64,000 nucleotides of DNA from an uncultured Legionella sp. (GTDB lineage: Bacteria; Pseudomonadota; Gammaproteobacteria; UBA6186; Azoamicaceae): assembly GCA_964522825.1 (NCBI GenBank), contig CAZFXA010000002.1, positions 23,626 through 87,625 of the forward strand. Reading direction: 5' to 3'. Below are positions 5,993-58,114 of this stretch, in pieces. The notes under the pieces were generated by a model. It had not been told where the DNA came from and did not search any database. It saw nothing but the letters and a program-made list of their open reading frames with translations. Both the position numbers and the translations under genes were made by a program. Each line of letters begins with the position of its first letter. Position 1 is the stretch's first letter.

Positions 5993-6068
5993 TAGCCATA
6001 GTTGTTTGATGCGTGAATACGCGCTACTATTTGCTTGAGGGCTTTTAAGCACTCTGCATCCTTACATG

Positions 6069-6142
6069 GGGCCCATAGCTCAGTTGGTTAGAGCAGAAGA
6101 CTCATAATCTTTTGGTCCTAGGTTCAAGTCCTAGTGGGCCCA
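6069..6142 (+). tRNA. ileX: tRNA with CAU anticodon, most likely tRNA-Ile2 (lysidine-modified), alternatively elongator tRNA-Met
   Basis: Hand-folded cloverleaf. Acceptor GGGCCCA/TGGGCCC, D arm GCTC-AGTTGGTTA-GAGC, anticodon stem GAAGA/TCTTT with loop CTCATAA (CAT at 6103-6105), variable TGGTC, T arm CTAGG-TTCAAGT-CCTAG, discriminator A. CCA is not encoded. C4-G69 and C5-G68, and the position after rpoD, resemble E. coli ileX. Confidence 0.85.
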
Positions 6143-6172
6143 CCCTAAAACCCCTTAAAAAACAGTACTTTT

Positions 6173-7357
6173 TCAATTTACCCCATTCCCAACCAAAACG
6201 CACTGTGTGGGTTTTGTGTGGGTTATGGGTCCTTGATCTGCTTCAACATTGGGCAATGGCTCCATTGGACGCACATTGCTGCTGTTTGGACGACGAAGCA
6301 ATGTGAGCATAACTACATTGTTTGCGTTCCTTTCACAGGCTTTGTTCGCTGCGCGATGTAAATTTTGCAACTCAGCTGAGGAGTAATGGGTAGTGATCCG
6401 ACTAGAGCGATGCCCTAGCAGATCCTGCCGATCCTCAAAACTCACCCCGGCAGCGCGTAAACGCTGACCAAAGGTATGTTTTAGATCATGCACACGCACT
6501 GGAATGCCCACTTTGACCCTAGCTCGTTTCCAAGCCGACGTTAACATCTTCGCTAAAGGTCGTTTCCTATAGTGGAATACATGTGTCGGATGCTTAGCTC
6601 GTTGGGCTTCCACCACCGCGCTAGCAATATCATTGCAGACAACCAGCCTATCCTCACCGTTTTTAACAAAGTCAGCTGGAATAATAAACACCTTGGCGGT
6701 GCCTAAAGCTGGAACCTGGATTTCCCATTCCCAGCGCAGATTACAGATTTCTTGATCTCGGCATCCCGCGTTTACGGCAAACGAAGCCATTTGCAGTAAA
6801 TGGGGGGGTAGCTTATCAAAAAGCCTGTCTTGTTCCTCCCAGCTTAAGGGATAGGGCTTGCGCAGATCAGGCTCTGGCAAAAGCTTGATCTTAGGTGCAG
6901 TGAGCAACCAACTGAGACCATATTCATCAAGCCATTCTGTTGATGCTAGGTTTAGGATCCGACGTACGACCTTTAATCCATGATTAATGGTACGCATCGA
7001 TACCTCCTTGCGCCGCGCTTCAATAAATGACTGTAATGATCCCATGTGAATCGCCCCTAGCCACAAGTTCCCAATATAGGGGTTCAACATTCTAAGCTGA
7101 CTTGCGTCTGAACACAGGCTACGCTTATGTTGATTCTCCATCAAAAACTTGGTGGCTGCCTCTTCAAAGGTTCGTTTAGGCCGAACGCCATAAACGTCAG
7201 CCTGCCTTATTTCTTCGCATCGCCTCGCGAGGTAGCGTTCCGCTTCTGAGAGTAACTCAGTGCCAGTGCTTTCTCGAAGGCAATGCCCGAAGATTTGCTT
7301 TTGTACGTGCCAGATCTTGCCCCTTTTGTACAAGCCTGGCGTTTGTTTACGTCCCAT
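6173..7357 (-). CDS. int: Tyrosine recombinase / phage-type integrase
   Basis: 394 aa. N-terminus GLYKRGKIWHVQK. Catalytic region AGCRDQEICNLRW (Arg I), VHDLKHTFGQRLRAAGV (His-x-x-Lys where Arg II is expected), LLGHRSSRITTHYS (His, Tyr). It lies adjacent to the tRNA. Confidence 0.9.
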   Translation of the reverse strand: MGRKQTPGLYKRGKIWHVQKQIFGHCLRESTGTELLSEAERYLARRCEEIRQADVYGVRPKRTFEEAATKFLMENQHKRSLCSDASQLRMLNPYIGNLWLGAIHMGSLQSFIEARRKEVSMRTINHGLKVVRRILNLASTEWLDEYGLSWLLTAPKIKLLPEPDLRKPYPLSWEEQDRLFDKLPPHLLQMASFAVNAGCRDQEICNLRWEWEIQVPALGTAKVFIIPADFVKNGEDRLVVCNDIASAVVEAQRAKHPTHVFHYRKRPLAKMLTSAWKRARVKVGIPVRVHDLKHTFGQRLRAAGVSFEDRQDLLGHRSSRITTHYSSAELQNLHRAANKACERNANNVVMLTLLRRPNSSNVRPMEPLPNVEADQGPITHTKPTQCVLVGNGVN

Positions 7358-7604: not shown

Positions 7605-8588
7605 TTAATCGTCAAACAAACCCCGGTCCGTTAAAGCTTTGCGTACATGCGTTATACCGATATGTCTAGAATGGTTCAGGGCAAGATTGCTGTACTGCAT
7701 CCAGTTGGTATTGCGTAACACATTCAGCACTTTGGCCTTATCGCGTTTAATCACAATGCCTAAACAGCCCTGATGTTTTATTTTGTCTAAACGAAGGACT
7801 AGCTTAGGGACGCGTGTAAAAAAAGTACATTCTAGAAAACAATGGGCCTCCTGTAAGCGTTTCTGACCACAAAGTTTGCCGGGCTGCCTATTGATGCTAA
7901 ACAAATCGATGTATTGATCGCAGGTTCTAAGCGGTTCTTTGGGAATAGAGGTTTTTCTTGACCATATTTGCCAAAGTGTATTAATCTTTGAACGCTTGCC
8001 ATCCGCTTTTATAAAGGATCCAGGTGGCAATACCGAAGAATGCACGAGATTTAAACCCCGCACTCTATGGGCTAAACCGCCTTGCCCACTATTCTGGAAC
8101 CCCATGGGTAAAATAAAACCCACGTAATCGCAGAATTGGGCTGCATGATTCAGAAACAGTAAGGCCAGCCATGCGCGAGCGCCAAAGGGCGGATTGCCTA
8201 CACAAATATGCTGATAACCCTTATTTTGGGGCTTCCAGCACAAAAATTCACTTTGAATGTACTCAGTACGAAAGGGCACCACATCAATACCAATGCGTTG
8301 ATGTGGGGGTAATAAATCATAAAAGGCTCCTAAACCTGCGGAAGGTTCTATAAAGGTATAATTTGAAGGTTCTACGCCCTCTGCGCGCATAAAATCATAG
8401 AGTCTTTGCCAACACTGTTCTGCCACGACTGGGCAAGTAAAGAATTGATCTAAGCCTACGCTATCCCTATCAACCCATGGGGGTATTGCCGCATTTGTTT
8501 TCCAGGCTTGATTACGAATCTTAATGGCCCAAGCATTTTTTTCGCTCAAATCGTAGGGAATCACAGTCTTTATAGAATATTTATCCAA
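7605..8588 (-). CDS. N6-adenine DNA methyltransferase, gamma class, no adjacent restriction partner
   Basis: 327 aa. SAM motif I is FIEPSAGLGAFYDLL, followed about 50 aa later by catalytic motif IV VGNPPFG. The I-then-IV order indicates gamma class. No nuclease-like ORF is adjacent. Confidence 0.75.
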   Translation of the reverse strand: MDKYSIKTVIPYDLSEKNAWAIKIRNQAWKTNAAIPPWVDRDSVGLDQFFTCPVVAEQCWQRLYDFMRAEGVEPSNYTFIEPSAGLGAFYDLLPPHQRIGIDVVPFRTEYIQSEFLCWKPQNKGYQHICVGNPPFGARAWLALLFLNHAAQFCDYVGFILPMGFQNSGQGGLAHRVRGLNLVHSSVLPPGSFIKADGKRSKINTLWQIWSRKTSIPKEPLRTCDQYIDLFSINRQPGKLCGQKRLQEAHCFLECTFFTRVPKLVLRLDKIKHQGCLGIVIKRDKAKVLNVLRNTNWMQYSNLALNHSRHIGITHVRKALTDRGLFDD

Positions 8589-8954: not shown

Positions 8955-11900
8955 TTACTGTGTCTCAGCTGAATATGATGTTTGTAATAATTTTTTGTGG
9001 TTTGCATCCCCTAGTGCACCATAACCGGTGGCAAAATTCAATGAAATGTCGCCTATGTTATAAGCTTGTTTAATTTCTTTAGCTCGTATAAATAACATTT
9101 GTGATTGATTGATATTGTGAATGGTCTGATACAAATTATTTAAGATAATGGCAGCTGCCAAATGATCTTTACCATAATGTTGCTCGCTAATTTTTAAAGC
9201 TTTTTCTAAACAAAGACGAGCCTTTCTTGAATCTCCTAGATCTTTATGAATATTCCCTAAATTATTTAAACTAATGCCTATAGCGATATGCTCTGCATGA
9301 TAATATTGAGCCTTAATTTTTAGAGATCTTTCAAGTTGTGCTTTTGCTTGATTTAGATTTCCTAAAACCCAATTCGCGTGTCCTAGACTAGTTAAAACAG
9401 TACTGGTTAAAAAATAATCTGGGCCATATTCTTTTTCATAAATATCCAAAGAACGTTCCAACATGGACTGTCCTTTTATTAGTTCTCCTGAGGCTATATA
9501 AGCGGTTCCAAGATTATGTAAGCTTGCAGCAATATTATGAGGAATTACATCAGGAGATTGCTCATCCATTTTTAGAACTCTTTCTAACAGTTGACACTGT
9601 TCTTTTACTCTACCGAAGATTCCGTAGACAATTCCAAGGTTATTTAAAGTGCTGGTTATTTCATTGGAATAGATTTTTTCATCGATTCTCAAGGCTCTTT
9701 CCAAAAGCGCTTGTGATTTTTTGATATCACCTAGCAGACAATAGATGCTTCCTAGATATCGCAAGGTTCTGGAGACGTTCAGATGGTTTGAACCATGTTT
9801 TTGTTTAAAGATAGCTAAAGATTGTTCAAGATAGTCCTTGGACAAAGCAGGTTCCTTATAGCATAAGGAAACACCTATATCAAAGGAAATCAGAGCTAAC
9901 AGAGCACTGTTAGGGTTTAAGTGTAAGGCTGTGTAGTGGCTCATTAACGATTGAAGATGTGGCAACAAGGCTTGCTGCCTTTGATCGTCTTCGCCAGCTA
10001 AAGTTTTGCGTGTAAATTCTTCATGAGCAAGATTTAAAATATTTTCATACCAAGATTGGCTAAGAGAAGGATTATAAGGATCAAGTTCTTTTAATATTTG
10101 CTTATGTTGATGTCGCAGTACCGCTTGCACTAAACGGTGAATTTCGAGAGTCTGCTTATTTGGATCTAGGGTGATAAGTGAATAACGATTCAGAAGCCCC
10201 AAAAGTTGGTCGAGAATCCATTCGGGATTTTCTTGGTTAGGAACGGTTTTTTTTAGCCAACTTAAAAGCAATGCTCTTGGGATTTGATTGGGTTCTAAAT
10301 AAGCACAAACAGTCATGAGTTGCACAGAAAGCGAAGGTATATTCTGCTGCATGGCTTCTTTTTTAATGGCATCGAAGTTCGTATGCCAAGTAACGGATAC
10401 AGGTACATGCTCAGTTCCTTCGGGTATGGCATGATCTGCTAACATTTTTTGTTCTGCTTGATAATAGCGGTCTAAATAGTCCTTAAAACCGATGCCATTA
10501 TTTCTAATGTAAGCACTAGCTTGGGCTAAGGCCAGTGGCAAATAACCCAACTTTTCTATTAGTTTTTGCACCACTTCCTGATCTTCTGTGCGTATTTTAC
10601 GTAAAGTGATGGATTCTATGAGTTGTAATGCTTCTTCTGGAGTCATGACATTTACCTCTAGTAGATTAAATTTATTCGGCCAATGGCGTTGTCGAGTAGT
10701 CAAAATGATATCGCCACCGGTTTCTGGTAAGAAATCTTTAATATCTTTATAAGTGGTGACATTATCATATACTAAAAGCCAACCAGGGTTTTTTGAAAGC
10801 CAATCTTTAATATAAGGCAATACTGAATCGAAAGAAGGTTTTTCTTCTTGATACCCAAGCACTTTGGCAAGCTCAATATATTGTTGTTTTAACTGAGCAA
10901 TATTTTCCGCATAAAACCAGCCTTTGAAGATATAAGGATGTTGAGAATGACGGATATAATAAAGTGCTAATTGAGTTTTGCCAACCCCGCCCAATCCAGA
11001 ACAGGCACTAATAGCCAAAGTATTGCTATTTGAATTTGGATTAAAATGACGGACATCAAATGATTCTTGATTATGTAATTTAGTATGCAAATTTTCAAGC
11101 AATTTCTGTCTGCCAACAAAAATATAATCTTGTCTAGGTATGTTCCAAGTTTTAATCTCTTTGTTAGAAGGTGTGGATATTTCCGATTTAATCTGCCAGA
11201 ATTCCGCCGCAACATTTTTATAGAGCCAACCTATACAGAAAAGAAGAACCACAAGATTCATGAATGAGGTAAATTTTCTTTGCTTCAAGATAGAGTCTGA
11301 AAAAACAGCCTGTTTTCCACTATTTTTTAGTAAAGTTTTTTCTTCTTCAAGGTGATTAAAAGAACCATCAGAGAGAGTTATACATTGTTTTTTAAAATTT
11401 AAAATATTTTCCTCAAAAGAAAGGTTGGGCAACAATATTTTTAACACCTCAAATACCATAAGATAGTAGTTTTTTTGCTTTGTTAAATCAAAGCGCTGAA
11501 TATCATTTGGCAATGCTGTGGGGGCGTCCGTCTCAACTGCTGTGTTCAAAGAAATAAAAATTATCGATTCGACAGAATGATTATTTTTAAAAAAGTCAAA
11601 AAGTTCTCGATTGTTTTCTATCAATGATACGGACAAACAACAAATAACATGGCTAGCAGATGGTTCGTTTTTCTTGTGAGGTTGTGCGAGCGTGTAATAA
11701 TTTTCCTTGCGTTCCCATAGTGTCAGACCAGCCAACTTCAAATGCTTTTTTAATTCGCGAAGCATAAAAAGGTTATCTTTTTGTTCCCCATCATAAACTA
11801 GGTAAGAAACAGGATGCTGCGTGACTGACCTGAATAGCTTACTTAATTCTCGTTCGAAGGCAATTTCAATTAGCAAACTCGTATAGTATTGATTCATAAA

Positions 11901-12197
11901 AACGAGCTTCCCGGATTTTTCGATAAAATCGATAATCCCTTCCTGTGAACCACATCCTAATTTTAGTTTGATACCTGCAATGCGATTTTCAACATTTCTA
12001 ACTGCAATCGATAATAGAGAAGCTATTTTACTCGATCGTCTACCTCTCAAAAGACAGGCAATAATATCTATTTCTCTAGAAGTAAAGGCAATGCCCTGAA
12101 TTTTTTTTAAATGTGAGGCATAAATATTCTTGGGAGGAATAAGGTTGTTAATAATCTCATGATTAATTTGGTTGGCTTCCGTTTTCGTATCTTCCAC
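8955..12197 (-). CDS. STAND NTPase: N-terminal LuxR/GerE HTH, hydrophobic segment, NB-ARC NTPase, C-terminal TPR array
   Basis: 1080 aa. HTH: TSREIDIIACLLRGRRSSKIASLLSIAVRNVENRIAGIKLKLG. Hydrophobic segment: FTSFMNLVVLLFCIGWLY. NB-ARC motifs: GLGGVGKTQLA (Walker A), LLVYDNV (Walker B), ILTTR, GYLPLAL (GLPL). The final ~300 aa are TPR-like repeats (NLGxxYxxxGxxxKAxxxxERSLKI). The gene is visibly AT-rich. Confidence 0.8.
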   Translation of the reverse strand: MEDTKTEANQINHEIINNLIPPKNIYASHLKKIQGIAFTSREIDIIACLLRGRRSSKIASLLSIAVRNVENRIAGIKLKLGCGSQEGIIDFIEKSGKLVFMNQYYTSLLIEIAFERELSKLFRSVTQHPVSYLVYDGEQKDNLFMLRELKKHLKLAGLTLWERKENYYTLAQPHKKNEPSASHVICCLSVSLIENNRELFDFFKNNHSVESIIFISLNTAVETDAPTALPNDIQRFDLTKQKNYYLMVFEVLKILLPNLSFEENILNFKKQCITLSDGSFNHLEEEKTLLKNSGKQAVFSDSILKQRKFTSFMNLVVLLFCIGWLYKNVAAEFWQIKSEISTPSNKEIKTWNIPRQDYIFVGRQKLLENLHTKLHNQESFDVRHFNPNSNSNTLAISACSGLGGVGKTQLALYYIRHSQHPYIFKGWFYAENIAQLKQQYIELAKVLGYQEEKPSFDSVLPYIKDWLSKNPGWLLVYDNVTTYKDIKDFLPETGGDIILTTRQRHWPNKFNLLEVNVMTPEEALQLIESITLRKIRTEDQEVVQKLIEKLGYLPLALAQASAYIRNNGIGFKDYLDRYYQAEQKMLADHAIPEGTEHVPVSVTWHTNFDAIKKEAMQQNIPSLSVQLMTVCAYLEPNQIPRALLLSWLKKTVPNQENPEWILDQLLGLLNRYSLITLDPNKQTLEIHRLVQAVLRHQHKQILKELDPYNPSLSQSWYENILNLAHEEFTRKTLAGEDDQRQQALLPHLQSLMSHYTALHLNPNSALLALISFDIGVSLCYKEPALSKDYLEQSLAIFKQKHGSNHLNVSRTLRYLGSIYCLLGDIKKSQALLERALRIDEKIYSNEITSTLNNLGIVYGIFGRVKEQCQLLERVLKMDEQSPDVIPHNIAASLHNLGTAYIASGELIKGQSMLERSLDIYEKEYGPDYFLTSTVLTSLGHANWVLGNLNQAKAQLERSLKIKAQYYHAEHIAIGISLNNLGNIHKDLGDSRKARLCLEKALKISEQHYGKDHLAAAIILNNLYQTIHNINQSQMLFIRAKEIKQAYNIGDISLNFATGYGALGDANHKKLLQTSYSAETQ

Positions 12198-12266
12198 TAA
12201 TACTATTTCAAAAAAACTTGTTGATTCATCTATGAAATCGACAGCTTACCAAGCCTATCAAATTCC

Positions 12267-12296
12267 TTGAGATAGATCATTAAAAAATTATCTCAA
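12267..12296. promoter_or_regulatory. Inverted repeat upstream of the STAND gene
   Basis: TTGAGATA (12267-12274), 14-nt AT-rich spacer, TATCTCAA (12289-12296). It lies 70-100 nt upstream of the STAND start codon at 12197. Confidence 0.3.
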
Positions 12297-12515
12297 ACTA
12301 GAAAACACGATTCTATAATTTAATGATAGGTCTTTATTATGGTTCATAAAACTCCATCACTTCAATGCTTTTTCTAAAAAAGACCTGTGTTTTCTTACCA
12401 AGAGCATCGCCTGAGTATATTTCACACATCGTCAAAGGTTTAAAACCCATGGAAAATATGATTTCAAAAAAACTTCTTACTGATTTTCAGGAAGGCTTAT
12501 ATAGTGAAAGGAATC

Positions 12516-12662
12516 TCAACCCCCTCTAAAACGATCACGTTCGTCATCTTCATCTTCATTGGCGTAGGCTTTAAATCTTCTAGTCTTTTGAAGGTCATAT
12601 TCAAGGCGACAGCTTTGAACGGCTTTAATATTGGCAAAAACGGCTATCGACTCAAAAATCAT
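12516..12662 (-). CDS. Small acidic hypothetical protein (48 aa)
   Basis: Own translation: MIFESIAVFANIKAVQSCRLEYDLQKTRRFKAYANEDEDDERDRFRGG. It is preceded by AAGGAGGTG with about 7-nt spacing. It is too short for the ORF track and is divergent from the 12836 gene. Confidence 0.35.
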   Translation of the reverse strand: MIFESIAVFANIKAVQSCRLEYDLQKTRRFKAYANEDEDDERDRFRGG

Positions 12663-12727
12663 CCGTCCACCTCCTTTTTGATGCACCTGAAGGCTGGTTT
12701 ACAGGGGTTCAATATAAACCATCAAAA

Positions 12728-12743
12728 CCGGAAATATTTCCGG
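12728..12743. promoter_or_regulatory. Perfect 16-bp palindrome in divergent intergenic region
   Basis: CCGGAAATATTTCCGG, between the small minus-strand ORF (start 12662) and the HTH/ParB-like gene (start 12836). Confidence 0.35.
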
Positions 12744-12835
12744 CTCTTTGTGGTTAGGATTGTCCACAGGTTTCATTGAAATGCTGAGAAAACTTTCTTG
12801 TAAGTCTTGAAAGAATCAGCGATGGGGGCAATAGG

Positions 12836-13684
12836 ATGTTTTTTGAAGGGCAAGATAAAAATGTGATGAGCAATCGCAGTTTATCTCAAGCTATTGCCAT
12901 GTATAAGACGGCTGCCAATCTGGCTAGAACCTTAGGGGTTGACCCAGACTTGATCTACAAGTGGCACAACCAAGATATAAGAATACCTCTACCGATGGCT
13001 CTGCGTATAGAAGATGTCACAAACATCGATTTTGAAAGATTATCACCCCATACACCAGAAGCCAATTTTTTAATTAAAAACCGAAGCCATAGAAAAAGTC
13101 TGATCAAAATAGAAATCGACGCTATTTTGCTTGATGTGAGCCAAAGTCTGCGAAATCTGCCTTCAGATCGACCCCTTATGATCGGAGAGGATCGCGTATT
13201 AATTTCAGGCTGGCATCCATTAGAGGCAGAAAAGCTAAAGGGTTCTAAACACCTTAAAGTCCTGGTGATAGATTTGGAATCCCTGTTTTTAGGCATGAAA
13301 GCGATTCATGAATTCCCTTATCTTTTTATCAGTGAAAAAATTGAAATAGGGCTGCGCTTGGAGGGATTAATGGGACATCCTCCAAGCGCAGGACATGACT
13401 TGAAGTCCAATGCTGCACTCATAAATAAAAATACTTCTGAACCCATCCCCATTTGGGGAGCGTTTACAGGTAGAAAAGACATTTTTATTGCAAAAACATT
13501 GGGTTACTCGACTAATACTTATTACCGTGCCAAGCAAGTTTATCTGCATGGCATTCCAGAACTGATTCAGGCCATGAATCTGAAAAAAGTACGCATTAAC
13601 AAAGCCTACACACTTTCAAAACTGAACGAAATCGAACAAACCGATTGGATCCAATCACATCTCAAGGAGGCCCCTGTGTTATGA
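12836..13684 (+). CDS. Cro/YdaS-like HTH fused to a degenerate ParB-like N-terminal domain and a C-terminal HTH
   Basis: N-terminus: LSQAIAMYKTAANLARTLGVDPDLIYKWHN (YdaS/Cro-like). Middle: IEIDAILLD..RPLMIGEDRVLISGWHPLEAEKLKGSKHLKVLVIDL (ParB/Srx-like, GxHR degenerate). C-terminus: IAKTLGYSTNTYYRAKQVYLHGIPELIQAM. The start could instead be M11 (12866). Confidence 0.5.
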   Translation: MFFEGQDKNVMSNRSLSQAIAMYKTAANLARTLGVDPDLIYKWHNQDIRIPLPMALRIEDVTNIDFERLSPHTPEANFLIKNRSHRKSLIKIEIDAILLDVSQSLRNLPSDRPLMIGEDRVLISGWHPLEAEKLKGSKHLKVLVIDLESLFLGMKAIHEFPYLFISEKIEIGLRLEGLMGHPPSAGHDLKSNAALINKNTSEPIPIWGAFTGRKDIFIAKTLGYSTNTYYRAKQVYLHGIPELIQAMNLKKVRINKAYTLSKLNEIEQTDWIQSHLKEAPVL

Positions 13685-14643: not shown

Positions 14644-15289
14644 TGCAGAAGCTTTTGCAGCGATCTTAGCTTCCATCGCTCAGCTCTACGGGAAAAGCTT
14701 TTCTAAACATTTGAGTGATATTTACTGGAATCTTTTAGAGCCTTATAGTTTGTCGGAACTTGAAATCGCTCTGAAGGCTCACCTACGTAATCCCAATGGG
14801 GGTCAGTTTTTTCCAAAGCCTGCGGATCTGATCCGTCATCTGGAAGGTGGCAGCGGCACCAAAGCTTTACAAGCTTGGACCCTGGTCGAACGTGCCATTC
14901 GGCAGATTGGAACCTACCAAAGCTTGGCTTTCGAAGATCCCTTGATTCATGCGGTCATCGAAGACATGGGTGGTTGGGTAAAGCTTTGTGCTATCAGCCT
15001 CAAAGAACTGCCCTTTTGCAGCTTAGAGTTTCAAAAACGCTATGAAGGTTTAGTCCATAAAGCACCGCATCGTTATCCCTCCTATTTGCCGGGTGTGATC
15101 GAATGTCAGAACAGCTCCAAAGGCTATGCAGTGTCTGAACCCTTGCTTATAGGTGATCTGCCCAAGACCCAAGCGGTCATTCAGGGTGGAAGCCCTCTAC
15201 CGCCTTTATGTCAGAGCCGTGCTTCGCTTGAGCAATGGATTGCTGACATTCATAAGATCCAACAGAGCAAGGATCCTAAAGATGCATAA
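14630..15289 (+). CDS. Hypothetical protein, possibly replication-associated
   Basis: 219 aa, translationally overlapping both neighbours. It contains GGQFFPKPADLIRHLEG. No motif can be assigned firmly. The call rests on context in the replication-like module. Confidence 0.45.
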   Translation: MKATDAEAFAAILASIAQLYGKSFSKHLSDIYWNLLEPYSLSELEIALKAHLRNPNGGQFFPKPADLIRHLEGGSGTKALQAWTLVERAIRQIGTYQSLAFEDPLIHAVIEDMGGWVKLCAISLKELPFCSLEFQKRYEGLVHKAPHRYPSYLPGVIECQNSSKGYAVSEPLLIGDLPKTQAVIQGGSPLPPLCQSRASLEQWIADIHKIQQSKDPKDA

Positions 15290-15611
15290 GGATTTTTATG
15301 TTCAACCGCCCTTAGCCCATCTGAAAGGCGTACGTCTGGCAGTAGCGCAGTTGGTGATCCAAGGCTACACCGAATCACAAATCGCAGGCAAACTCTGTTT
15401 GTCTTTGAGCTCCATTAAAAAATATGTGGTGGGGCTTAAAGAGCAAATGAACTGTGCAACCTTGCATGGACTCAGTGCAAAGCTCATGCGCCTAAGTTTA
15501 GAACACAAAACAAACCCTTCTTTTTTCAAAAAAGGCCAGCAGATGGTACTAAAGATCAATGCTTTTTTGAGAAAAAAGGAGAAAACTAAGCTTTTAGGAG
15601 GTGCCCCATGA
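15282..15611 (+). CDS. LuxR/GerE-family HTH regulator (109 aa)
   Basis: From internal ATG 15282, which overlaps the upstream stop. RLAVAQLVIQGYTESQIAGKLCLSLSSIKKYVVGLKEQMN is a GerE-type HTH. It lies immediately upstream of the pilin gene. Confidence 0.7.
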   Translation: MHKDFYVQPPLAHLKGVRLAVAQLVIQGYTESQIAGKLCLSLSSIKKYVVGLKEQMNCATLHGLSAKLMRLSLEHKTNPSFFKKGQQMVLKINAFLRKKEKTKLLGGAP

Positions 15612-44983: not shown

Positions 44984-46735
44984 TTACATGAGGATACATT
45001 TTTTCTCAGGGCTTGGGTGTTTACGTTTACCCTTAGCAGGCATGGAATTCACTTCAGTTTGTCCATTACGGGGGGGGTGGTATCCACCGGCATTGCCATT
45101 ATGAGAATGACCATGGCCATTGGTACCATTACCATTCGCAGCTAAGCTAAAAATAAGCACATTTTTGGGGGGGCATTGTGTTTGAATAATCAGAGCATTT
45201 AAAAAGTCTGCATGATCTACATCAACAGTGTGCAATACGAGGGTCATGAGTTCATCAGCCTTTTTGGATGCGCTGGCAGTCTTGTCAATATCCGTATCCT
45301 TAAGATTGTGTATCACATTAATGGCAAGCACAAAAGCACGCTTTGCAAGCGCATCTACTTGTGAAGGCGTTAAGGTATCCAAACTGCCAGGTTTGGGTAG
45401 ACTCGCTAATTTGGCTTCTACCATACAGGTCATTTTATAGGCCAATTCCTGGGCGACCGGGTGGCTTTCGGCAGGTAGTGCCTCAGCGATACGCAGATAA
45501 CGCTGTTTTTCTCGTCTATCTGCCGCGATTGAAAGCCCCACGCTCACAATGCCAAAAGGCGCACCCCAAGGAGAAGGAGCCTGCCCTGCAATAAAGCTTA
45601 GGATAGTTGAAGCTTTATCCATTTTGGTATTTTGATTACGCTGTGCAAGACCAGAACTCATGGTCTGGTAACCTCCCAGCATAATGCTAAGATGTTTGGC
45701 AAGGGCATCAAAAAGCCGTCCTTGAGAGGGGCTGAGATTTTCAATTTCTTGAAAAAAAGGATGATTACGCGCCACTTGTCGATGTACCAATTGTACATTT
45801 TGATGCAGTACCTCAACCCTATCGGCCAATTCACGGCTGGGAGCTATGTCCTTTATAATAGGCCGCCATTCTTCGATTAAATCACTAAAGTCGCAGCACA
45901 CCTTTACCCACGGAGGGGTTGGATCAGTGGGTCTTCTTTTAGCCTGGGGTCTAAACTGTACTGCAAAACGCACTACCTTAGGATCAGGATCACCCGGCTC
46001 CGTAAGGCAACGCACGGTATCACGGGGATTCATGCCAGGGTCTAAAAAATCTTGGATGTAATTTCTGGGATTTTGAATAAGCTCCCAAGGGGTAGTGTCT
46101 CCATTTTCCATGGTGGTTTCTGCGAGGAGCAATCGGCGGGCGGTGGGGTGTTTAAGCAGCACTCTGAGTACGTCCAGATTACCACCGTAATTCAATTCCA
46201 TGGTTTCAATACCAGGCACTGTGGTGGCTGTGCCATTATAATAAGCCAGCAGCGCATTGCGTTTGGCCTCTGTAAGCATGGAATGCTTGATCAAAGCCGG
46301 AGCAGAAAAACTAAGAAGCGCTTCCATAATAAGGTTATTGCCATTGGAATCGATAACACCGGGATTAGCTTGTAATACGGTTTCAACCATATCGTAACGG
46401 CCCAACTGAATGGCCAGGCTAATAGCCGACATATTATCTTCGGCTGGTAGTGTTACATCAGCCCCCTTAGCAATCAAGGTTGTTACAAACTCAATTTCTC
46501 CGGTAAACATGGCAGAAAGAAGGGCAGGATTAGTAGTAGGTTTGCCTCTGGGGGATAGTACAACACCAATAGCATTTGGATCGGCACCCTCTGCTAGAGC
46601 CTGGTGAAAAGCAGGTTTATCACGTTTGAGCATGGCTTTGATGAGGCGTGCATTAACTGCATTTTGCTCCTCTGGACTACGTACCTCCGAACTACGCAGA
46701 ACATTTTGCATTTGCTGCCTTGATGTAGCCATCAT
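44984..46735 (-). CDS. Ankyrin-repeat protein with C-terminal polybasic stretch and CaaX box (CILM)
   Basis: 583 aa. ANK-like repeats: ALAEGADPNA..; TTLIAKGADVTLPAEDNMSAISLAIQLGRYDMVETVLQ. G/N/H-rich linker: NGNGTNGHGHSHNGNAGG. The C-terminus is AKGKRKHPSPEKKCILM-stop (Cys codon at 44996-44998, stop at 44984-44986), verified on the DNA. Confidence 0.8.
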   Translation of the reverse strand: MMATSRQQMQNVLRSSEVRSPEEQNAVNARLIKAMLKRDKPAFHQALAEGADPNAIGVVLSPRGKPTTNPALLSAMFTGEIEFVTTLIAKGADVTLPAEDNMSAISLAIQLGRYDMVETVLQANPGVIDSNGNNLIMEALLSFSAPALIKHSMLTEAKRNALLAYYNGTATTVPGIETMELNYGGNLDVLRVLLKHPTARRLLLAETTMENGDTTPWELIQNPRNYIQDFLDPGMNPRDTVRCLTEPGDPDPKVVRFAVQFRPQAKRRPTDPTPPWVKVCCDFSDLIEEWRPIIKDIAPSRELADRVEVLHQNVQLVHRQVARNHPFFQEIENLSPSQGRLFDALAKHLSIMLGGYQTMSSGLAQRNQNTKMDKASTILSFIAGQAPSPWGAPFGIVSVGLSIAADRREKQRYLRIAEALPAESHPVAQELAYKMTCMVEAKLASLPKPGSLDTLTPSQVDALAKRAFVLAINVIHNLKDTDIDKTASASKKADELMTLVLHTVDVDHADFLNALIIQTQCPPKNVLIFSLAANGNGTNGHGHSHNGNAGGYHPPRNGQTEVNSMPAKGKRKHPSPEKKCILM

Positions 46736-49156: not shown

Positions 49157-51367
49157 ATGGAAACCTTTAGATCTCATCCAAAAGCGCTGATTACCAATGC
49201 CCGCTGCTTAACCGAGGGGATTGATGTGCCAGCAGTCGATATGGTCGCGTTTTTAAATAAGAAACGCAGTAAAATTGATATTATTCAAGCCATTGGCCGA
49301 TCTTTAAGAAAGGTTCCTGGTAAAGTTTATGGGCATGTGTTTTTACCCTTGTTCGTGGCCGACAATAAAGGTGAAACCTTAGAGCAAGCTGTTGAGCGAG
49401 CCGATTATCGAGAAATATGGGAAGTGATACAGGCGCTTAGTGAACAAGATGAAGCCCTAGAAGCTACCATTCAACAGTTAAAATGCAACAAAGCCAAGAC
49501 GGGAATGCTTGAGGCAGGCTTAGAGAAATATATTGATATTACCAGCCAGACTATCGATGAAGCCTTACACAAGCGCTTACAAAAAATCATTTCGGTTAAG
49601 GTTGTTGACAGGGCTGGTTCATTTTGGAAGGTAATGTATGATCAATTATCTAATTTCAGAAAAGAAAATGGTCATTGTAATGTTCCTCCTGGTGTTTCCG
49701 CTTCCCTATCCACATGGATTTCCAATCAAAGAACAGCCTATAAAGATGCAAAGCTTAATGCTTCGAAAATAGAGCAGCTTAACGCTTTAGGATTTAATTG
49801 GTACGTTCATGATAACCAATGGAAAAAATATTTTGATAAGCTTAAAAATCACAGAGAAAGACATGGTGATTGTTCTAAAATATCTGACAGCCAACTAAAG
49901 TCTTGGGTAAACAATCAAAAAACAGCTTATAAAAAAAACAACCTTGAATCTTGGAAAATTGAAAAGCTTAATAGCTTGGATTTTAATTGGCATCTTTTTC
50001 GCAATCAATGGCAAAAGCGCTTTCAAGAACTGCAAACCTATCAACAAAAATATGGAATTTCTCATATTCCCAGAAAACATCCATTGTCTTTTTGGATGAC
50101 GACTCAAAGGCGCGCCTTAAAAAAAGGCATTCTTGAATCTTGGAAGATAGAAAAACTGAATGCTTTAGGATTGGACTGGGATCCTTTTATTAGTGCATGG
50201 CAAAAAAACCTTAAGCAACTAAAAGATTATAACAAAAGGCATGGGCATTGTAATATTCCTTATGGCATTCATAATTCACTATATGCTTGGATCTTAAATC
50301 AAAAAAAATCTTATAAAAAAGGTAAGCTTGATACTTGGAAGATAGAAAAACTGAATGCTTTAGGGTTTGATTGGAATCCCGTTCCAAATCAATGGCATGA
50401 ATGGTTTAAAAAACTTCAAAATCACAAAAAAGAATTTAAACATTTTGAAATATCCAATGATTCGTCGTTGCGATCTTGGTTAAATAAACAAAGAGTGGCC
50501 CACAGGAAAAATAGGCTTGAACCCTGGAAGATAGAATGCCTGAATGCTTTAGGACTTGATTGGAGCCCAAAACTCAATCAATGGCAAAAGCGTCTTGAAG
50601 AATTACAAGCCTATAAACAAAAATATGGGCATTGTAATGTTTCTTCTGCTATTGCTTGTGCCTTGAATGTTTGGATCTCAGCTCAAAGGACAGCCTATAA
50701 AAAAGTCCAGCTTGATGCTTGGAAAGTAGAGCGTCTTAATGCTTTAGGGTTTGATTGGGATCCTTTACTCAATCAATGGCAAGTGAACTTTGAACAATTA
50801 CAAGCCTATAAACAAAAGCATGGGCATTGTAATGCTTCTTCAGGTGCTTCTTGTTCATTGCGTAAGTGGGTTTTGATGCAAAGAAGAATTTATAAAGAAG
50901 GTCGTTTAAATAATAATAAAATAGTACTGCTCAACAGTTTAGGTTTTGATTGGGATCCCTATGTTAATCAATGGAACCAGCAGTTTGAAAAATTACAATA
51001 TTATAAGAAACAACATGGCCACTGTAATGTTTTTATGGGCATATCTTCTTCATTATGTAGCTGGGTTTGGGATCAAAGAAAATCTTATAAAAAAGGGGAG
51101 CTTGATGCCTGGAAAATAGAGAAACTCAACACTTTAGAATTTGATTGGGACCCAAGGTTAAAGCAATGGCAGACAAACTTTGAACAGCTACAAGCCCACA
51201 AGGAGAAACATGGAGATTGTGAGGTCCCGGATACGACTTCTTCATTGTATAACTGGATTAAAAAGCAAAAAATGGCCTATAAAAAAGGGCTGCTGGAAAA
51301 TCCCAGAGTTGCACTGCTCAATAGTTTGGATTTTGATTGGGGTCCTGGAAATCTTTTAAAAAATTGA
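49157..51367 (+). CDS. SF2 helicase copy 1, C-terminal lobe plus nine HA (helicase-associated) domain repeats
   Basis: Motifs V-VI are ITNARCLTEGIDVPAVDMVAFL and IIQAIGRSLR. These are followed by nine ~64-aa repeats with the pattern W..xF..L..Yk.khGHCNVp....L..Wv..QR..YKkg.L..wKIEkLNaLGFDWdP. Confidence 0.75.
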   Translation: METFRSHPKALITNARCLTEGIDVPAVDMVAFLNKKRSKIDIIQAIGRSLRKVPGKVYGHVFLPLFVADNKGETLEQAVERADYREIWEVIQALSEQDEALEATIQQLKCNKAKTGMLEAGLEKYIDITSQTIDEALHKRLQKIISVKVVDRAGSFWKVMYDQLSNFRKENGHCNVPPGVSASLSTWISNQRTAYKDAKLNASKIEQLNALGFNWYVHDNQWKKYFDKLKNHRERHGDCSKISDSQLKSWVNNQKTAYKKNNLESWKIEKLNSLDFNWHLFRNQWQKRFQELQTYQQKYGISHIPRKHPLSFWMTTQRRALKKGILESWKIEKLNALGLDWDPFISAWQKNLKQLKDYNKRHGHCNIPYGIHNSLYAWILNQKKSYKKGKLDTWKIEKLNALGFDWNPVPNQWHEWFKKLQNHKKEFKHFEISNDSSLRSWLNKQRVAHRKNRLEPWKIECLNALGLDWSPKLNQWQKRLEELQAYKQKYGHCNVSSAIACALNVWISAQRTAYKKVQLDAWKVERLNALGFDWDPLLNQWQVNFEQLQAYKQKHGHCNASSGASCSLRKWVLMQRRIYKEGRLNNNKIVLLNSLGFDWDPYVNQWNQQFEKLQYYKKQHGHCNVFMGISSSLCSWVWDQRKSYKKGELDAWKIEKLNTLEFDWDPRLKQWQTNFEQLQAHKEKHGDCEVPDTTSSLYNWIKKQKMAYKKGLLENPRVALLNSLDFDWGPGNLLKN
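49619..51346 (+). repeat. In-frame array of nine HA-domain repeats (~190-195 nt period)
   Basis: Repeats were delimited by hand from SFWKVMYDQL.. to ..LNSLDFDWGPG. They are divergent at the DNA level and conserved in W/GHC/QR/YK/LN.LGFDW positions. Confidence 0.85.
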
Positions 51368-55761: not shown

Positions 55762-56715
55762 ATGCACAGAGTAATCGATCACACACACTGTTCCCTGCAG
55801 CGCTATCAGCAAGAGATGGGCAATATTCCCTTGCTCAGCGAACAGCAAGCAATAACGATCGCCCAAGCTATTGAGGAAAATAGCCTGTCGCTGAATGCCC
55901 TAGAAGCTTCCCTAGCCGTCCCATCGAGCGTCTTAGCTATGGATGCGCTTAAACGTCAGATTTGTGTGGCTAAGTACAAAGTCCAGAAGGCCAAACAACA
56001 GATGATTGAAGCGAACCTTCGATGGGTCATCAGTATTGCCAAACGATACAAGGGTCGGGGAGTACCCTTAGCCGATTTAATCCAAGAAGGTAATCTGGGT
56101 TTAATGAAAGCTGTCGATAAATTCGATTATCGACTGGGTTATAAATTCTCCACCTATGCGATCTGGTGGATCCGTGAAGCAATGGTGCAGGCAATTGATG
56201 AGGCATCTACGATCCGCATTCCCTCTCATATGAGGAAGTCTATGAGGCGGTTCGCGAAGCATCAGCAACTACTGGCACAAGAACTCGGCAAAGAACCCAG
56301 TACCCAGGAGATGGTTCAACATTTGGGATTGCCTGAGGATCACATCTGCGAAATGCTTCAACTCAAAGAACAACCCCTTAGGTCAAAGCCTCAGGCTGAG
56401 TGTTTAGATCTACACATCCATGCTACAGAGCCATCGCCCTTCAATAGGGTATTGCTAGATGCCTTAAAAACAATCATGCCGCAGATCTTAGGCACACTCA
56501 AGCCGCGTGATGCGCAGATTTTAAGCATGCGTTTTGGATTGGATAACGCAGAGGAGCACACGCTGGAAGCCATTGGCGATGTCTTGGGACTGACCCGAGA
56601 ACGAGTGCGCCAAATTGAAAGTGCGGCCCTTAAAAAACTCAAGCTTTCAGCCTATGCCAAGACCTTAGAAGGCTTCGTAGATAAGGTTCAAAAACAGGCG
56701 CATCGTGCGGCCTAA
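55762..56715 (+). CDS. Sigma-70 family factor, group-2/RpoS-sized paralog (317 aa)
   Basis: Regions 2-4 are present: [99 protein letters not shown]. Confidence 0.85.
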
Positions 56716-56743
56716 AAAGCATTGTAGGGATAGGAGGTACATC

Positions 56744-58114
56744 ATGCGCAGTCAGGATGATCACGAAAACGCGAATGTTGAAAGATCTTTAGAACAGCCT
56801 TTGCAAGCATCTGTGGATCCGGTCAACGCCTATATGCAAGCCATGAGTCGTTTTAAATTGCTGAACCGCCAGGATGAAAGGGTCCTTGGAGAACGTATTG
56901 AAAAGGGTCTTCAAGCAGTCTTAGCGACCCTGGCACACTATCCACCCACGCTTGATCCGCTATTGGAGGCTTTCCAAAAAGTGCAGCGTTCTGAAATGGC
57001 CTTCAACGAGGTGATCCATGGCTTTATAGAGCCGTCTCCTCTTGCAGCCACGAGCCCTACAAAAACCAATGCGGTCGTAACAACGACCCTAAAGCATTCT
57101 GACTGGGTAGAAGCTAACAATCGATTTGAAAATCTGGCTATTTTAAAAATACAGGTTGAACAATGTCTAGCCAAATGGGGTCGGGTACATGCTAGAACCC
57201 AGGGAGCATTTTTAGTATTAGCCAACGCCTTAAGTTGTTTTAGAGTATGCAGCCCCTTATTAAAGACCATGATCCTTATTTTGCGTAAGGCATTGTCTTC
57301 GGAACAGTCCCTTGAGAAACAGGCATTGCGTCATCAGCTCTGGTGTGCAGAATCTGAAGTAGTTCGTGCTAAAGATGAATTGATTAACGCTAATCTTCGT
57401 TTGGTCATTTCTATTGCGAAGAAATACCAGAATCAAGGTCTAGCCTTCTTAGATTTAATCCAAGAGGGCAACTTAGGTTTGATGAAGGCGGTTGATAAAT
57501 TTGATTATCAAAGAGGCTATAAATTCTCGACCTATGCAACCTGGTGGATCCGCCAGGCGATCACCCGTGCCCTTGCCGATCAAGGTCGAGAAATCCGTGT
57601 GCCGGTACATGTGATTGAAGTGATGCAAAAATTAAGGAAAGTCCACAATAAAATCGTACAGGAAACGGGCTTCGAGCCCACAGTCGAAGCCTTAGCCAAG
57701 CACAGCCATACACCCCTGCAAAAGGTCCATAAAGTACTGGGGATTTTTGATCCTATTTCTATGGAAACGCCGATAAGACATGAGGAATCCGCTTTGTTGT
57801 TAGAAGATGTGATAGTCGATTCGACGCTGCAATCGCCCCTGGCGTTGGTAAGCCAAACGGAATTACAAAAAACCCTGCATAAAGTTTTAGCAGAACTGCC
57901 TGCCCGTGAAGCCATGGTGCTCAGAATGCGTTTTGGTATTGATACAGACACAGAACAGACCCTAGAGGAAATCGGTCGCACCCTGGGTCTGACCCGAGAA
58001 CGGGTGAGGCAAATTGAAGGGCAGGCCTTAGCCAAGCTCAGACTACCTCGTCGGGCTAAGGTATTGAAAGCGTTCTTAGAAGATAAGTCCTCAGAGGTTC
58101 AAAAGAAAACATAA
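56744..58114 (+). CDS. RpoD-like sigma-70 paralog lacking region 1.1 (456 aa)
   Basis: From ATG 56744, after a [40 protein letters not shown] (1.2), [18 protein letters not shown] (as in host Rpo[13 protein letters not shown]), [59 protein letters not shown]. Confidence 0.88.

Follow-up and report, generated by a model that had tools for sequence, protein, structure and literature searches.

The window analyzed here is a stretch of 64,000 nucleotides from an uncultured Legionella sp. (contig CAZFXA010000002.1, positions 23,626 to 87,625 of the forward strand; assembly GCA_964522825.1), in which tsaD, dnaG and rpoD are followed by a tRNA-Met gene, a tyrosine integrase gene, an open reading frame (ORF) at 7605-8588, the gene that is the subject of this work, and a gene for a YdaS/Cro-like protein. 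Beyond the YdaS/Cro-like gene come DUF6475, the conjugation genes TraL/E/K/B/V/C...TraN, TraG and TraD, and a TrwC-type relaxase. The gene under study, which encodes a protein of the STAND class (signal transduction ATPases having numerous domains), is an AT-rich cargo gene located at the integrase end of an F-type integrative and conjugative element (ICE) integrated at tRNA-Met. In the list of ORFs it corresponds to exactly one frame, 8955..12197 on the minus strand, of 1080 amino acids (aa) and with a GTG start; the N terminus of the protein aligns with that of its closest homologue (P0002), and the identical 1080-aa product has also been called on a second public contig. The G+C fraction (GC) of the gene is 0.356, against 0.46-0.49 in the flanking chromosome and ICE backbone, in keeping with the AT richness on which the original prediction had remarked. 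The parts of the gene, from the N to the C terminus of the protein, are as follows.

8955..12197, minus strand: the whole gene, stop included, with LuxR-type helix-turn-helix (HTH), alpha/beta domain, predicted transmembrane helix, NB-ARC, winged helix and tetratricopeptide repeats (TPRs) (ORF list).
11907..12125, minus strand: GerE/LuxR-type HTH, residues ~25-97, the best-conserved region of the family (Pfam, match to 1fse, AlphaFold2 pLDDT 94-98).
11826..11906, minus strand: long connecting helix, residues 98-124 (AlphaFold2 helix; F114 invariant; Y105, L108 and L118 nearly invariant).
11427..11825, minus strand: five-stranded alpha/beta (flavodoxin-like) domain, residues ~125-257 (AlphaFold2; without assignable family).
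11307..11426, minus strand: two helices past the alpha/beta domain, residues 258-297 (AlphaFold2 helices 262-276 and 282-296; F268 nearly invariant).
11205..11285, minus strand: K/R cluster KQRK, residues 305-308, and predicted single transmembrane helix, residues 309-331, with the core FTSFMNLVVLLFCIGWLY (hydrophobicity, K/R enrichment, AlphaFold2).
10398..11150, minus strand: NB-ARC, residues ~350-600, including the WNIPRQDYIFVGR lead-in, Walker B D478, TTR and GLPL (Pfam, NCBIfam, invariant residues).
10974-10997, minus strand: Walker A within NB-ARC (GLGGVGKT, residues 401-408).
10098..10397, minus strand: winged helix/DUF7779 of the STAND core, residues ~601-700, with MHD-like His687 (Pfam; R688, L689 and Q691 nearly invariant).
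9798..10097, minus strand: helical arm linking the STAND core to the TPR array, residues ~701-800 (mean identity 0.28; TPR-type Pfam and PADLOC matches start at ~757).
9048..9797, minus strand: TPR array of the kinesin-light-chain (KLC) type, residues ~801-1050, the presumed ligand sensor (TPR_12, TPR_10, KLC structures).

Judged by the Pfam gathering thresholds (23.5 bits for GerE, 23.5 bits for NB-ARC and 27 bits for DUF7779), the protein matches GerE at residues 38-90 (25.4 bits), NB-ARC at residues 395-564 (32.5 bits) and DUF7779 at residues 620-697 (37.6 bits); all three exceed their thresholds, and the NB-ARC/TPR STAND NTPase with an N-terminal GerE/LuxR HTH that had been proposed for this gene is real. 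TPR_12 (2e-38) and TPR_10 (2.6e-26) match across residues ~757-1047, and the top NCBIfam model, FxSxx_TPR (NF040586), reaches 275 bits over residues 354-697, with a cutoff of 300. The four motifs quoted in the original prediction, GLGGVGKT, LLVYDNV, ILTTR and GYLPLAL, are all present, and the protein has the full set of elements of the NB-ARC clade of STAND proteins, that is, Walker A and Walker B, TTR, GLPL, and a winged helix with an MHD-like histidine (HRLVQ). When the family profile was compared with PDB sequences, the HTH was matched by GerE (1fse, E 1.2e-10), the C-terminal two-thirds by the nucleotide-binding oligomerization domain (NOD) of AfsR (8k60, E 3e-24; 8jke, E 1e-22) and by the NB-ARC of plant NRC1 (6s2p), and the repeats by the TPRs of KLC1/2 (E 1e-36 to 1e-47). 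Assignment of the HTH to GerE/LuxR (PF00196) draws on the above-threshold Pfam match, the match to 1fse, a Foldseek superposition on the LuxR HTH of VqmA, and the AlphaFold2 pLDDT of 94-98.

An AlphaFold2 model of residues 1-345, built from 78 family sequences (pLDDT 86.6, pTM 0.79), shows a helical HTH region (22-95), the long helix 98-124, a five-stranded alpha/beta domain (130-255), two helices within 262-296, and a continuous 42-residue helix (298-339) containing the hydrophobic stretch; modeling of residues 96-300 by themselves gave the same picture (pLDDT 84.5, pTM 0.80). The alpha/beta stretch quoted in the original prediction is present from residue 130 and the hydrophobic core at residues 309-326. 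For residues ~120-230 a fold reminiscent of TIR or flavodoxin had been suggested, and only the second half of that suggestion survives. The alpha/beta domain has no match in Pfam, and Foldseek finds no match in the PDB at E<=1e-3; its weak matches (TM-scores no higher than 0.53) are a mixture of acylglycerol kinase, a TIR from Acinetobacter, and receiver, HGPRT and B12-binding Rossmann folds. Pfam reports no TIR, the top TIR fold (8g83_B, E 0.01, TM-scores 0.39/0.53) is no better a match than the receiver, HGPRT and B12-binding folds, and no TIR appears in the top 50 for the 1-345 model. Receiver and B12-binding identities were likewise dropped as unsupported by the fold searches with residues 1-345 and 96-300. 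Across residues 125-257, the 78-sequence alignment contains zero conserved polar residues, the conserved positions being hydrophobic only. As modeled, the domain is a generic flavodoxin-like sandwich, and TIR is unsupported beyond the fold class.

A word-indexed search returned 451 relatives, most of which carry the same set of GerE, NB-ARC, DUF7779 and TPRs. A profile of the N-terminal module (HTH, alpha/beta domain and helix; 345 positions), searched against 1.84 billion cluster representatives, matches 976 clusters (at 50% identity) with E<=1e-30. Nearly all of the top 150 clusters are proteins of 1000-1300 aa in which Walker A falls around residue 340-450, and the others are obvious fragments; the N-terminal module is therefore found almost solely together with the NB-ARC module. 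No variation is seen in the 78-sequence alignment at R41 and L62 (HTH), P354 and R363 (WNLPRQDxxFVGR lead-in), G401, G403, G404, G406, K407 and T408 (Walker A), D478 (Walker B), T500 and R502 (TTR), P554 (GLPL) or H687 (MHD-like position). Mean pairwise identity is 0.54 for the HTH, 0.50 for NB-ARC and 0.47 for the winged helix, and falls to 0.29 for the TPRs, 0.28 for the arm, 0.24 for the alpha/beta domain and 0.17 for the hydrophobic helix. The HTH is the most conserved part of the protein, and its combination with a conserved NB-ARC switch and variable TPRs is the pattern to be expected if a signaling protein acts on a single kind of DNA target but responds to many ligands. In the literature on LuxR/NB-ARC proteins in Rickettsia, on the LuxR genes of the Rickettsiales amplified genetic element (RAGE) and on DUF7779, we found no description of the family; the terms "LuxR" and "HTH" are absent from the main text of a recent STAND phylogeny (PMC13581612), and LuxR, GerE, NB-ARC and TPR are all absent from the main text of a survey of transmembrane transcription regulators (PMC10269533). 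The family is both large and undescribed.

The original prediction had also drawn attention to a single hydrophobic stretch between HTH and NTPase, which as a transmembrane helix would place one of two necessarily cytoplasmic domains outside the cell. This stretch, and the topology problem that comes with it, is a property of the whole family and no product of chance, being conserved in position in 164 full-length relatives. In 103 of the first 120 matches, a single uncharged segment of 19-23 residues precedes Walker A by 75 +/- 12 aa; the segment also occurs in nearly all of 120 further representatives and is kept in homologues of 25-27% identity on plasmids of Paracaedimonas acanthamoebae and Megaera polyxenophila (Candidatus). 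Measured over the 164 full-length members, the peak of the Kyte-Doolittle scale (19-mer) has a mean of 2.36, is at least 2.0 in 83% of them, and ranges up to ~3.2, while in the AlphaFold2 model helix 298-339 is continuous with a pLDDT of 94. The retention of position, length and hydrophobicity while the sequence drifts is a signature of a putative lipid-facing transmembrane helix. Charges counted over 15 residues on each side of the helix are unevenly distributed, with 0.238 K/R and 0.056 D/E per residue in the N flank and 0.152 and 0.103 in the C flank (background ~0.13 and ~0.14); the N flank is the richer in K/R in 110 members and the poorer in 16 (Wilcoxon p=4e-17). Both an N-terminal signal peptide and a second hydrophobic segment are absent from the family members examined. 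Given these absences and the K/R-rich N flank, an N-in/C-out orientation is what the positive-inside rule predicts, in which the HTH would be cytoplasmic and the NB-ARC/TPR module would lie outside the cytoplasm. Relatives that lack the HTH and have TIR/SEFIR or other N-terminal domains instead begin with sequences resembling Sec signal peptides (P0038, P0046, P0057 and P0120) or with an N-terminal signal anchor (P0066), and the TPR paralogs that adjoin family genes in metagenomic loci have signal peptides at their N termini as well; these starts would point the same way as a C-out topology. Per 100 aa, the C-terminal part holds 0.67 cysteines and the N-terminal part 1.50. The protein joins a DNA-binding domain to at least one predicted transmembrane region, the combination by which transmembrane transcription regulators are recognized.

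All named hosts of the family are obligate intracellular bacteria, namely, many Rickettsia species and endosymbionts, Candidatus Tisiphia, Megaera and Paracaedimonas, with the remainder being metagenomic. The family matches one Paracaedimonas plasmid at five places. Two related genomes carry the gene in an ICE of the same family, with int/CsrA/YdaS-like genes on one side of it and the tra operon on the other, and one of these two ICEs sits at the same tsaD-dnaG-rpoD-tRNA site. A Rickettsia orthologue lies beside TraD, a TraA relaxase, SpoT synthetase and hydrolase, a histidine kinase and a Dam methyltransferase, a set of neighbors that corresponds to the cargo described for RAGE (PMC10732058). 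Elsewhere, four tandem paralogs (1162, 1133, 974 and 1090 aa; locus L009, 10001-23489) stand directly downstream of AbiEi/AbiEii and a type I restriction-modification (R-M) system, another relative is a chromosomal singleton near a eukaryote-like Ser/Thr kinase and an ankyrin gene, and on the Megaera plasmid CP113872.1 (L016, 4199-17508) a homologue is found among Pal, a porin, a ferritin-like protein, DUF883, two BON-domain proteins and ChaB, envelope and stress neighbors that would suit a regulator reading the envelope.

For a broader view of gene neighborhoods, 80 metagenomic loci were collected by a scan with the HTH alignment, and 150 neighbor proteins were profiled. The set contains 86 family genes in 63 loci, with extra family copies in 16 loci, and no neighbor family occurs in more than 6 of the 80 loci. 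Among the 150 neighbors, no Pfam family is seen more than four times (the commonest being GNAT acetyltransferases, MFS transporters, integrases, transposases and HTH proteins) and no PADLOC family more than twice (scattered SoFic, PDC candidates and methyltransferases), and the family motif was not found in the viral contigs of IMG/VR. Tandem arrays of paralogs are frequent in the family. The gene is therefore a stand-alone gene of variable, mobile regions. The conserved metabolic neighborhood that would have marked the homologues as ordinary regulators is missing from the 80 loci, and the co-occurrence with defense genes for which the original prediction had asked is sporadic next to the relatives.

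Taken together, these data lead us to read the protein as a stand-alone, membrane-tethered STAND transcription regulator carried as cargo by an F-type ICE, with the switch logic of AfsR, GutR and MalT and the membrane topology of ToxR, CadC and similar regulators, a reading to which we give a probability of roughly 55%. Here, the N-terminal ~300 aa, with the HTH, the connecting helix and the flavodoxin-like domain, would be cytoplasmic, one hydrophobic helix behind the K/R cluster would anchor the protein in the inner membrane, and the NB-ARC, winged-helix and TPR module would face the periplasm. Binding of a ligand, probably a protein or peptide, by the variable TPR array would relieve autoinhibition of the NB-ARC, and nucleotide-dependent oligomerization could then gather the cytoplasmic HTHs across the membrane, leading to DNA binding and changed transcription. 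Likely targets would be the element's own genes, in the regulatory/transfer region, or genes for the interaction with the host; the former are plausible because the STAND gene faces the YdaS/Cro-like gene across 638 bp and because a LuxR ORF lies upstream of traL. We infer each of these steps, that is, membrane insertion, orientation, ligand sensing, oligomerization, DNA binding and targets, from the features described above. Both halves of the proposed design have counterparts among characterized proteins: AfsR is an autoinhibited, ATP-activated activator composed of DNA-binding domain, NOD, arm and TPRs (PMC10936776), and single-pass transmembrane transcription regulators are widespread (PMC10269533).

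The closest parallel in domain order is provided by AfsR, a large Streptomyces antibiotic regulatory protein (SARP), and GutR, in which a DNA-binding domain, an NB-ARC-type NOD, an arm and a TPR sensor follow each other in the same sequence and for which the same logic is expected, in which NOD/TPR keep the protein inactive until ATP or an inducer activates it (PMC10936776). This bears on the suggestion that an N-terminal HTH is unusual in such a protein: a DNA-binding domain ahead of NB-ARC and TPRs is not unusual, given the order in AfsR (PMC10936776), whereas a LuxR-type domain in that position is new. The DNA-binding domain of AfsR is of the OmpR-type SARP kind and is accompanied by a bacterial transcriptional activation domain (BTAD), and neither AfsR nor GutR has the flavodoxin-like domain and conserved predicted transmembrane helix that separate the DNA-binding domain from the NOD here. 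The hosts also differ, being Actinobacteria for AfsR and host-associated Proteobacteria and their mobile elements for the present family. Membership in AfsR/large SARP was rejected on a score of 68 bits for NF053617 (cutoff 1430), confined to residues 342-561, and on the absence of BTAD and Trans_reg_C in Pfam.

In topology, ToxR, CadC, TcpP and VtrA offer the better comparison (PMC10269533): their cytoplasmic DNA-binding domain is N-terminal and is joined by a single transmembrane helix to a large C-terminal sensor, the N-in/C-out arrangement that is predicted here. The likeness does not extend to homology: these regulators use an OmpR-type winged helix in place of a LuxR HTH, and our protein has ~200 aa of extra putatively cytoplasmic domain and a C-terminal P-loop STAND NTPase with TPRs. 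ToxR/CadC homology was accordingly discarded, the DNA-binding domain being GerE, with no Trans_reg_C or OmpR-type match. MalT and the large ATP-binding regulators of the LuxR family (LAL) share the combination of STAND NTPase, LuxR-type HTH and helical-repeat sensor, but their HTH is C-terminal and ours is N-terminal, the NTPase here is of the NB-ARC/AP-ATPase type, and MalT has no transmembrane helix; besides the position of the HTH, a TPR_MalT score of 33.3 bits, below the cutoff of 45, led us to reject membership in this group. For the NB-ARC/winged-helix/TPR part, the closest sequence model is that of FxsT, the FxSxx-COOH TPR protein, and the C-terminal two-thirds match annotated fxsT of Streptomyces, cyanobacteria and Prosthecochloris at 24-29% identity. 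FxsT proteins, however, lack the HTH, alpha/beta and transmembrane N terminus; the NF040586 score of 275 bits is below the cutoff of 300, and the neighbors are an integrase, a methyltransferase and ICE genes, with no FxsA/FxsB-type neighbors seen, so that this membership was rejected as well. Finally, the antiviral STAND (Avs) and bNACHT proteins resemble the family in being tripartite single-protein STANDs with a repeat sensor, in forming paralog arrays and in having occasional defense neighbors, but their outputs are nuclease, protease, TIR or SIR2, as opposed to a conserved DNA-binding HTH and an internal predicted transmembrane helix. No PADLOC model of Avs or bNACHT matches the protein, whose N terminus is an HTH, and it was not assigned to either.

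Several observations weigh against a membrane-tethered transcription regulator. Its insertion and orientation are deduced from hydrophobicity and charge statistics, and the helix of the window protein is the least hydrophobic of the family, at 1.61 on the Kyte-Doolittle scale. The C-terminal part has an even number of cysteines in ~50% of cases, with no sign of selection for disulfides. We know of no precedent for an NB-ARC P-loop NTPase outside the cytoplasm, and to our knowledge, ATP is absent from the periplasm of free-living bacteria. The RpoD of the window gives no indication of the lifestyle of the host; it is at most 73% identical to that of any other organism, the named ones at that level being uncultured gammaproteobacterial metagenome-assembled genomes (MAGs). 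On the side of DNA binding, scans for promoters and terminators gave counts not above those in shuffled sequences, and the regions upstream of 59 family genes are not enriched in palindromes relative to shuffles, with no shared palindrome and no operator motif among them. The tandem paralog arrays and some defense-gene neighbors would, moreover, also be compatible with an immune receptor.

Such a receptor, akin to Avs or bNACHT proteins, would recognize a phage protein or a protein of a mobile genetic element through its TPRs and oligomerize through NB-ARC, with the hydrophobic helix (disrupting the membrane as a resistosome does) or the alpha/beta domain as effector and the HTH serving autoregulation only. 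The STAND receptor architecture with a variable TPR sensor agrees with this idea, as do the four-paralog array adjoining AbiE and a type I R-M system, the extra family copies in 16 metagenomic loci, the scattered neighbors matching PADLOC models (SoFic, PDC candidates, methyltransferases), the orphan methyltransferase that adjoins the gene on the ICE, and the close relatives with TIR/SEFIR where the HTH would be; transmembrane segments are also known among bacterial NACHT domain types, although there they are C-terminal (bioRxiv 10.1101/2022.07.19.500537). We nevertheless consider a defense receptor unlikely. The PADLOC matches of the protein are to the generic TPR models PDLC01169 and PDLC01171 only, no defense family is found more than twice among the 150 neighbors, and the viral contigs of IMG/VR yielded no occurrence of the family motif. 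Moreover, an identity of 0.54 for the HTH, set against 0.17 for the helix and 0.24 for an alpha/beta domain without a conserved polar residue, is the opposite of what an effector would lead one to expect, and the K/R cluster and positive-inside asymmetry indicate a constitutive anchor and not a latent, inserting helix. The named hosts are obligate intracellular bacteria, in which phage pressure is expected to be low. The Avs-like immune function, one of the two kinds offered in the original prediction, found no support, as PADLOC matches are generic, defense neighbors sporadic, and the output domain a conserved HTH in place of a toxic effector.

The helix might, on the other hand, not span the membrane at all, being buried (for instance, in oligomerization) or holding the protein at the inner face of the membrane, which would make the protein an ordinary cytoplasmic regulator similar to AfsR/GutR and using cytoplasmic ATP. 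The paradox of ATP supply would then vanish, and the marginal hydrophobicity of the window segment (1.61), a cysteine parity without periplasmic sign, the inclusion of the helix in an N-terminal AlphaFold2 model of pTM 0.79, and the cytoplasmic location of all known NB-ARC/STAND regulators (PMC10936776) would find a simple explanation. What makes this improbable in our view is that a non-spanning helix leaves its own hydrophobicity and the K/R cluster unexplained: 83% of members reach at least 2.0 on the Kyte-Doolittle scale, position and a length of ~20 aa are kept while the sequence is not, as is typical of helices that face lipid and untypical of buried ones, the hydrophobicity is uniform along the helix instead of amphipathic, the helix is too short for a hairpin, and the N-side K/R cluster with its depletion of acidic residues has no explanation without insertion, to which the signal-peptide-like N termini of HTH-less relatives may be added. 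It is very unlikely, finally, that an intracellular bacterium secretes or translocates the protein as an effector, which would insert in a host-cell membrane and act through its eukaryote-like NB-ARC and TPRs, like the TPR/ankyrin effectors of RAGE. The presence of the family in Rickettsia, Tisiphia, Megaera and Paracaedimonas would suit such a role, as would the eukaryote-like neighbors at some loci (Ser/Thr kinase, ankyrin repeats, YopJ-type acetyltransferases), the ATP on offer in host cytosol, and the view of RAGE TPR proteins, some with Sec signals, as putative secreted effectors (PMC10732058). Yet the best-conserved part of the protein is a bacterial GerE/LuxR HTH with no obvious role at a host membrane, an N-terminal signal peptide is absent, and the NB-ARC is nearest to bacterial modules of the FxsT/AfsR type, not to eukaryotic ones. 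The helix is also very hydrophobic; such helices favor targeting to the inner membrane by the signal recognition particle (SRP), whereas translocated effectors with transmembrane segments tend to be less hydrophobic.

Within the membrane-tethered regulator reading, a further step is to take the predicted topology literally, with NB-ARC and TPRs truly outside the cytoplasm. The protein would then be a transmembrane receptor resembling nucleotide-binding leucine-rich repeat (NLR) proteins, in which a P-loop switch run on host ATP diffusing into the periplasm couples host or envelope ligands to a LuxR HTH; we regard this as possible but hold it only tentatively. An extracytoplasmic NB-ARC is conceivable only with ATP in the periplasm, which fits the intracellular lifestyle of the named hosts. 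Bacteria in host cytosol do have periplasmic ATP and import host ATP through Tlc translocases; the same periplasmic pool of host ATP feeds these ATP/ADP translocases. In such a scheme, the relatives with signal peptides ahead of TIR/SEFIR-NB-ARC-TPR would be exported versions of the same module. STAND/NLR switches are regarded as strictly intracellular and transmembrane transcription regulators as simple sensors free of ATPase; the family, which spans about a thousand clusters at 50% identity, combines both. If the predicted topology is true, it would be the first extracytoplasmic NLR-like NTPase, approaching a new kind of receptor, and a direct case of bacterial signaling that depends on host-supplied ATP. 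On a conservative reading, it is a widespread regulator that conjugative elements (RAGE and F-type ICEs) and plasmids carry in Rickettsia and other endosymbionts, in which gene regulation is poorly understood.

The remaining features around the gene in the window are these.

6069-6144: tRNA-Met.
6173-7357: tyrosine integrase.
7605-8588, minus strand: type II DNA methyltransferase (PADLOC PDLC03280, E 1.9e-54).
12198..12835, unstranded: divergent intergenic region of 638 bp between the STAND gene and the YdaS/Cro-like gene (12836-13684, plus strand), a candidate promoter/operator region (ORF map).

The tRNA-Met gene, the integrase and the lone type II methyltransferase bear out the description of the locus as an integrase-proximal cargo slot next to an orphan methyltransferase. 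The methyltransferase ORF has no match in searches of Pfam, NCBIfam and PDB sequences, and no gene for a nuclease or restriction enzyme lies beside it. The divergent region contains one sigma-70-like site, at 12365-12336(-), and a search for local repeats in the flanking intergenic regions gave nothing remarkable. The 3' end of tRNA-Met (searched with 6040-6200) has no second copy elsewhere in the window, the longest repeat being 12 nt, and attR, the right ICE boundary, was not located. Directly upstream of traL there is a small ORF of ~109 aa with a LuxR/GerE-type HTH (~15285-15611, plus strand), the counterpart of which in a related ICE is a GerE gene of 91 aa (L005, 22529-22804); it may be the transfer regulator of the ICE and a candidate partner or competitor of the STAND HTH. 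In the two related ICEs, the YdaS/Cro-like gene, of 270-286 aa, is duplicated, with 54-61% identity within the element and one copy directly upstream of the STAND gene (L004, 8970-9812 and 15251-16111; L005, 9023-9832 and 17611-18456); the window holds a single copy, divergent from the STAND gene.

Within the tra operon, a second AT-rich insertion (22314-24366, minus strand; GC 0.35-0.38) contains ORFs of 215 and 439 aa, which have no match in Pfam or NCBIfam and only a marginal one in PADLOC (CARF_HEPN, E 0.004); it is possibly another cargo module. Past the relaxase, the last ICE gene identified, the window encodes a protein of 736 aa in which the helicase-associated (HA) repeat occurs nine times, a protein with ankyrin repeats and a second sigma-70-family paralog of 469 aa, listed at 49157-51367 (+), 44984-46735 (-) and 56705-58114 (+), respectively. 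The ankyrin gene hints at a host-associated lifestyle. RpoD of the window is 70-73% identical to that of uncultured organisms and 61% identical to that of a Francisellaceae MAG.

Two further observations concern loci of relatives. The Dam-type methyltransferase near the Rickettsia orthologue lies ~2.5 kb from it. At locus L011 (9102-17476), SEFIR/TIR genes stand together with genes for SEFIR/TIR-NB-ARC-TPR proteins, among them P0038 with its start resembling a Sec signal peptide, and a YopJ-type acetyltransferase is encoded nearby; these putatively exported TIR-STAND proteins of a host-associated bacterium merit separate attention.

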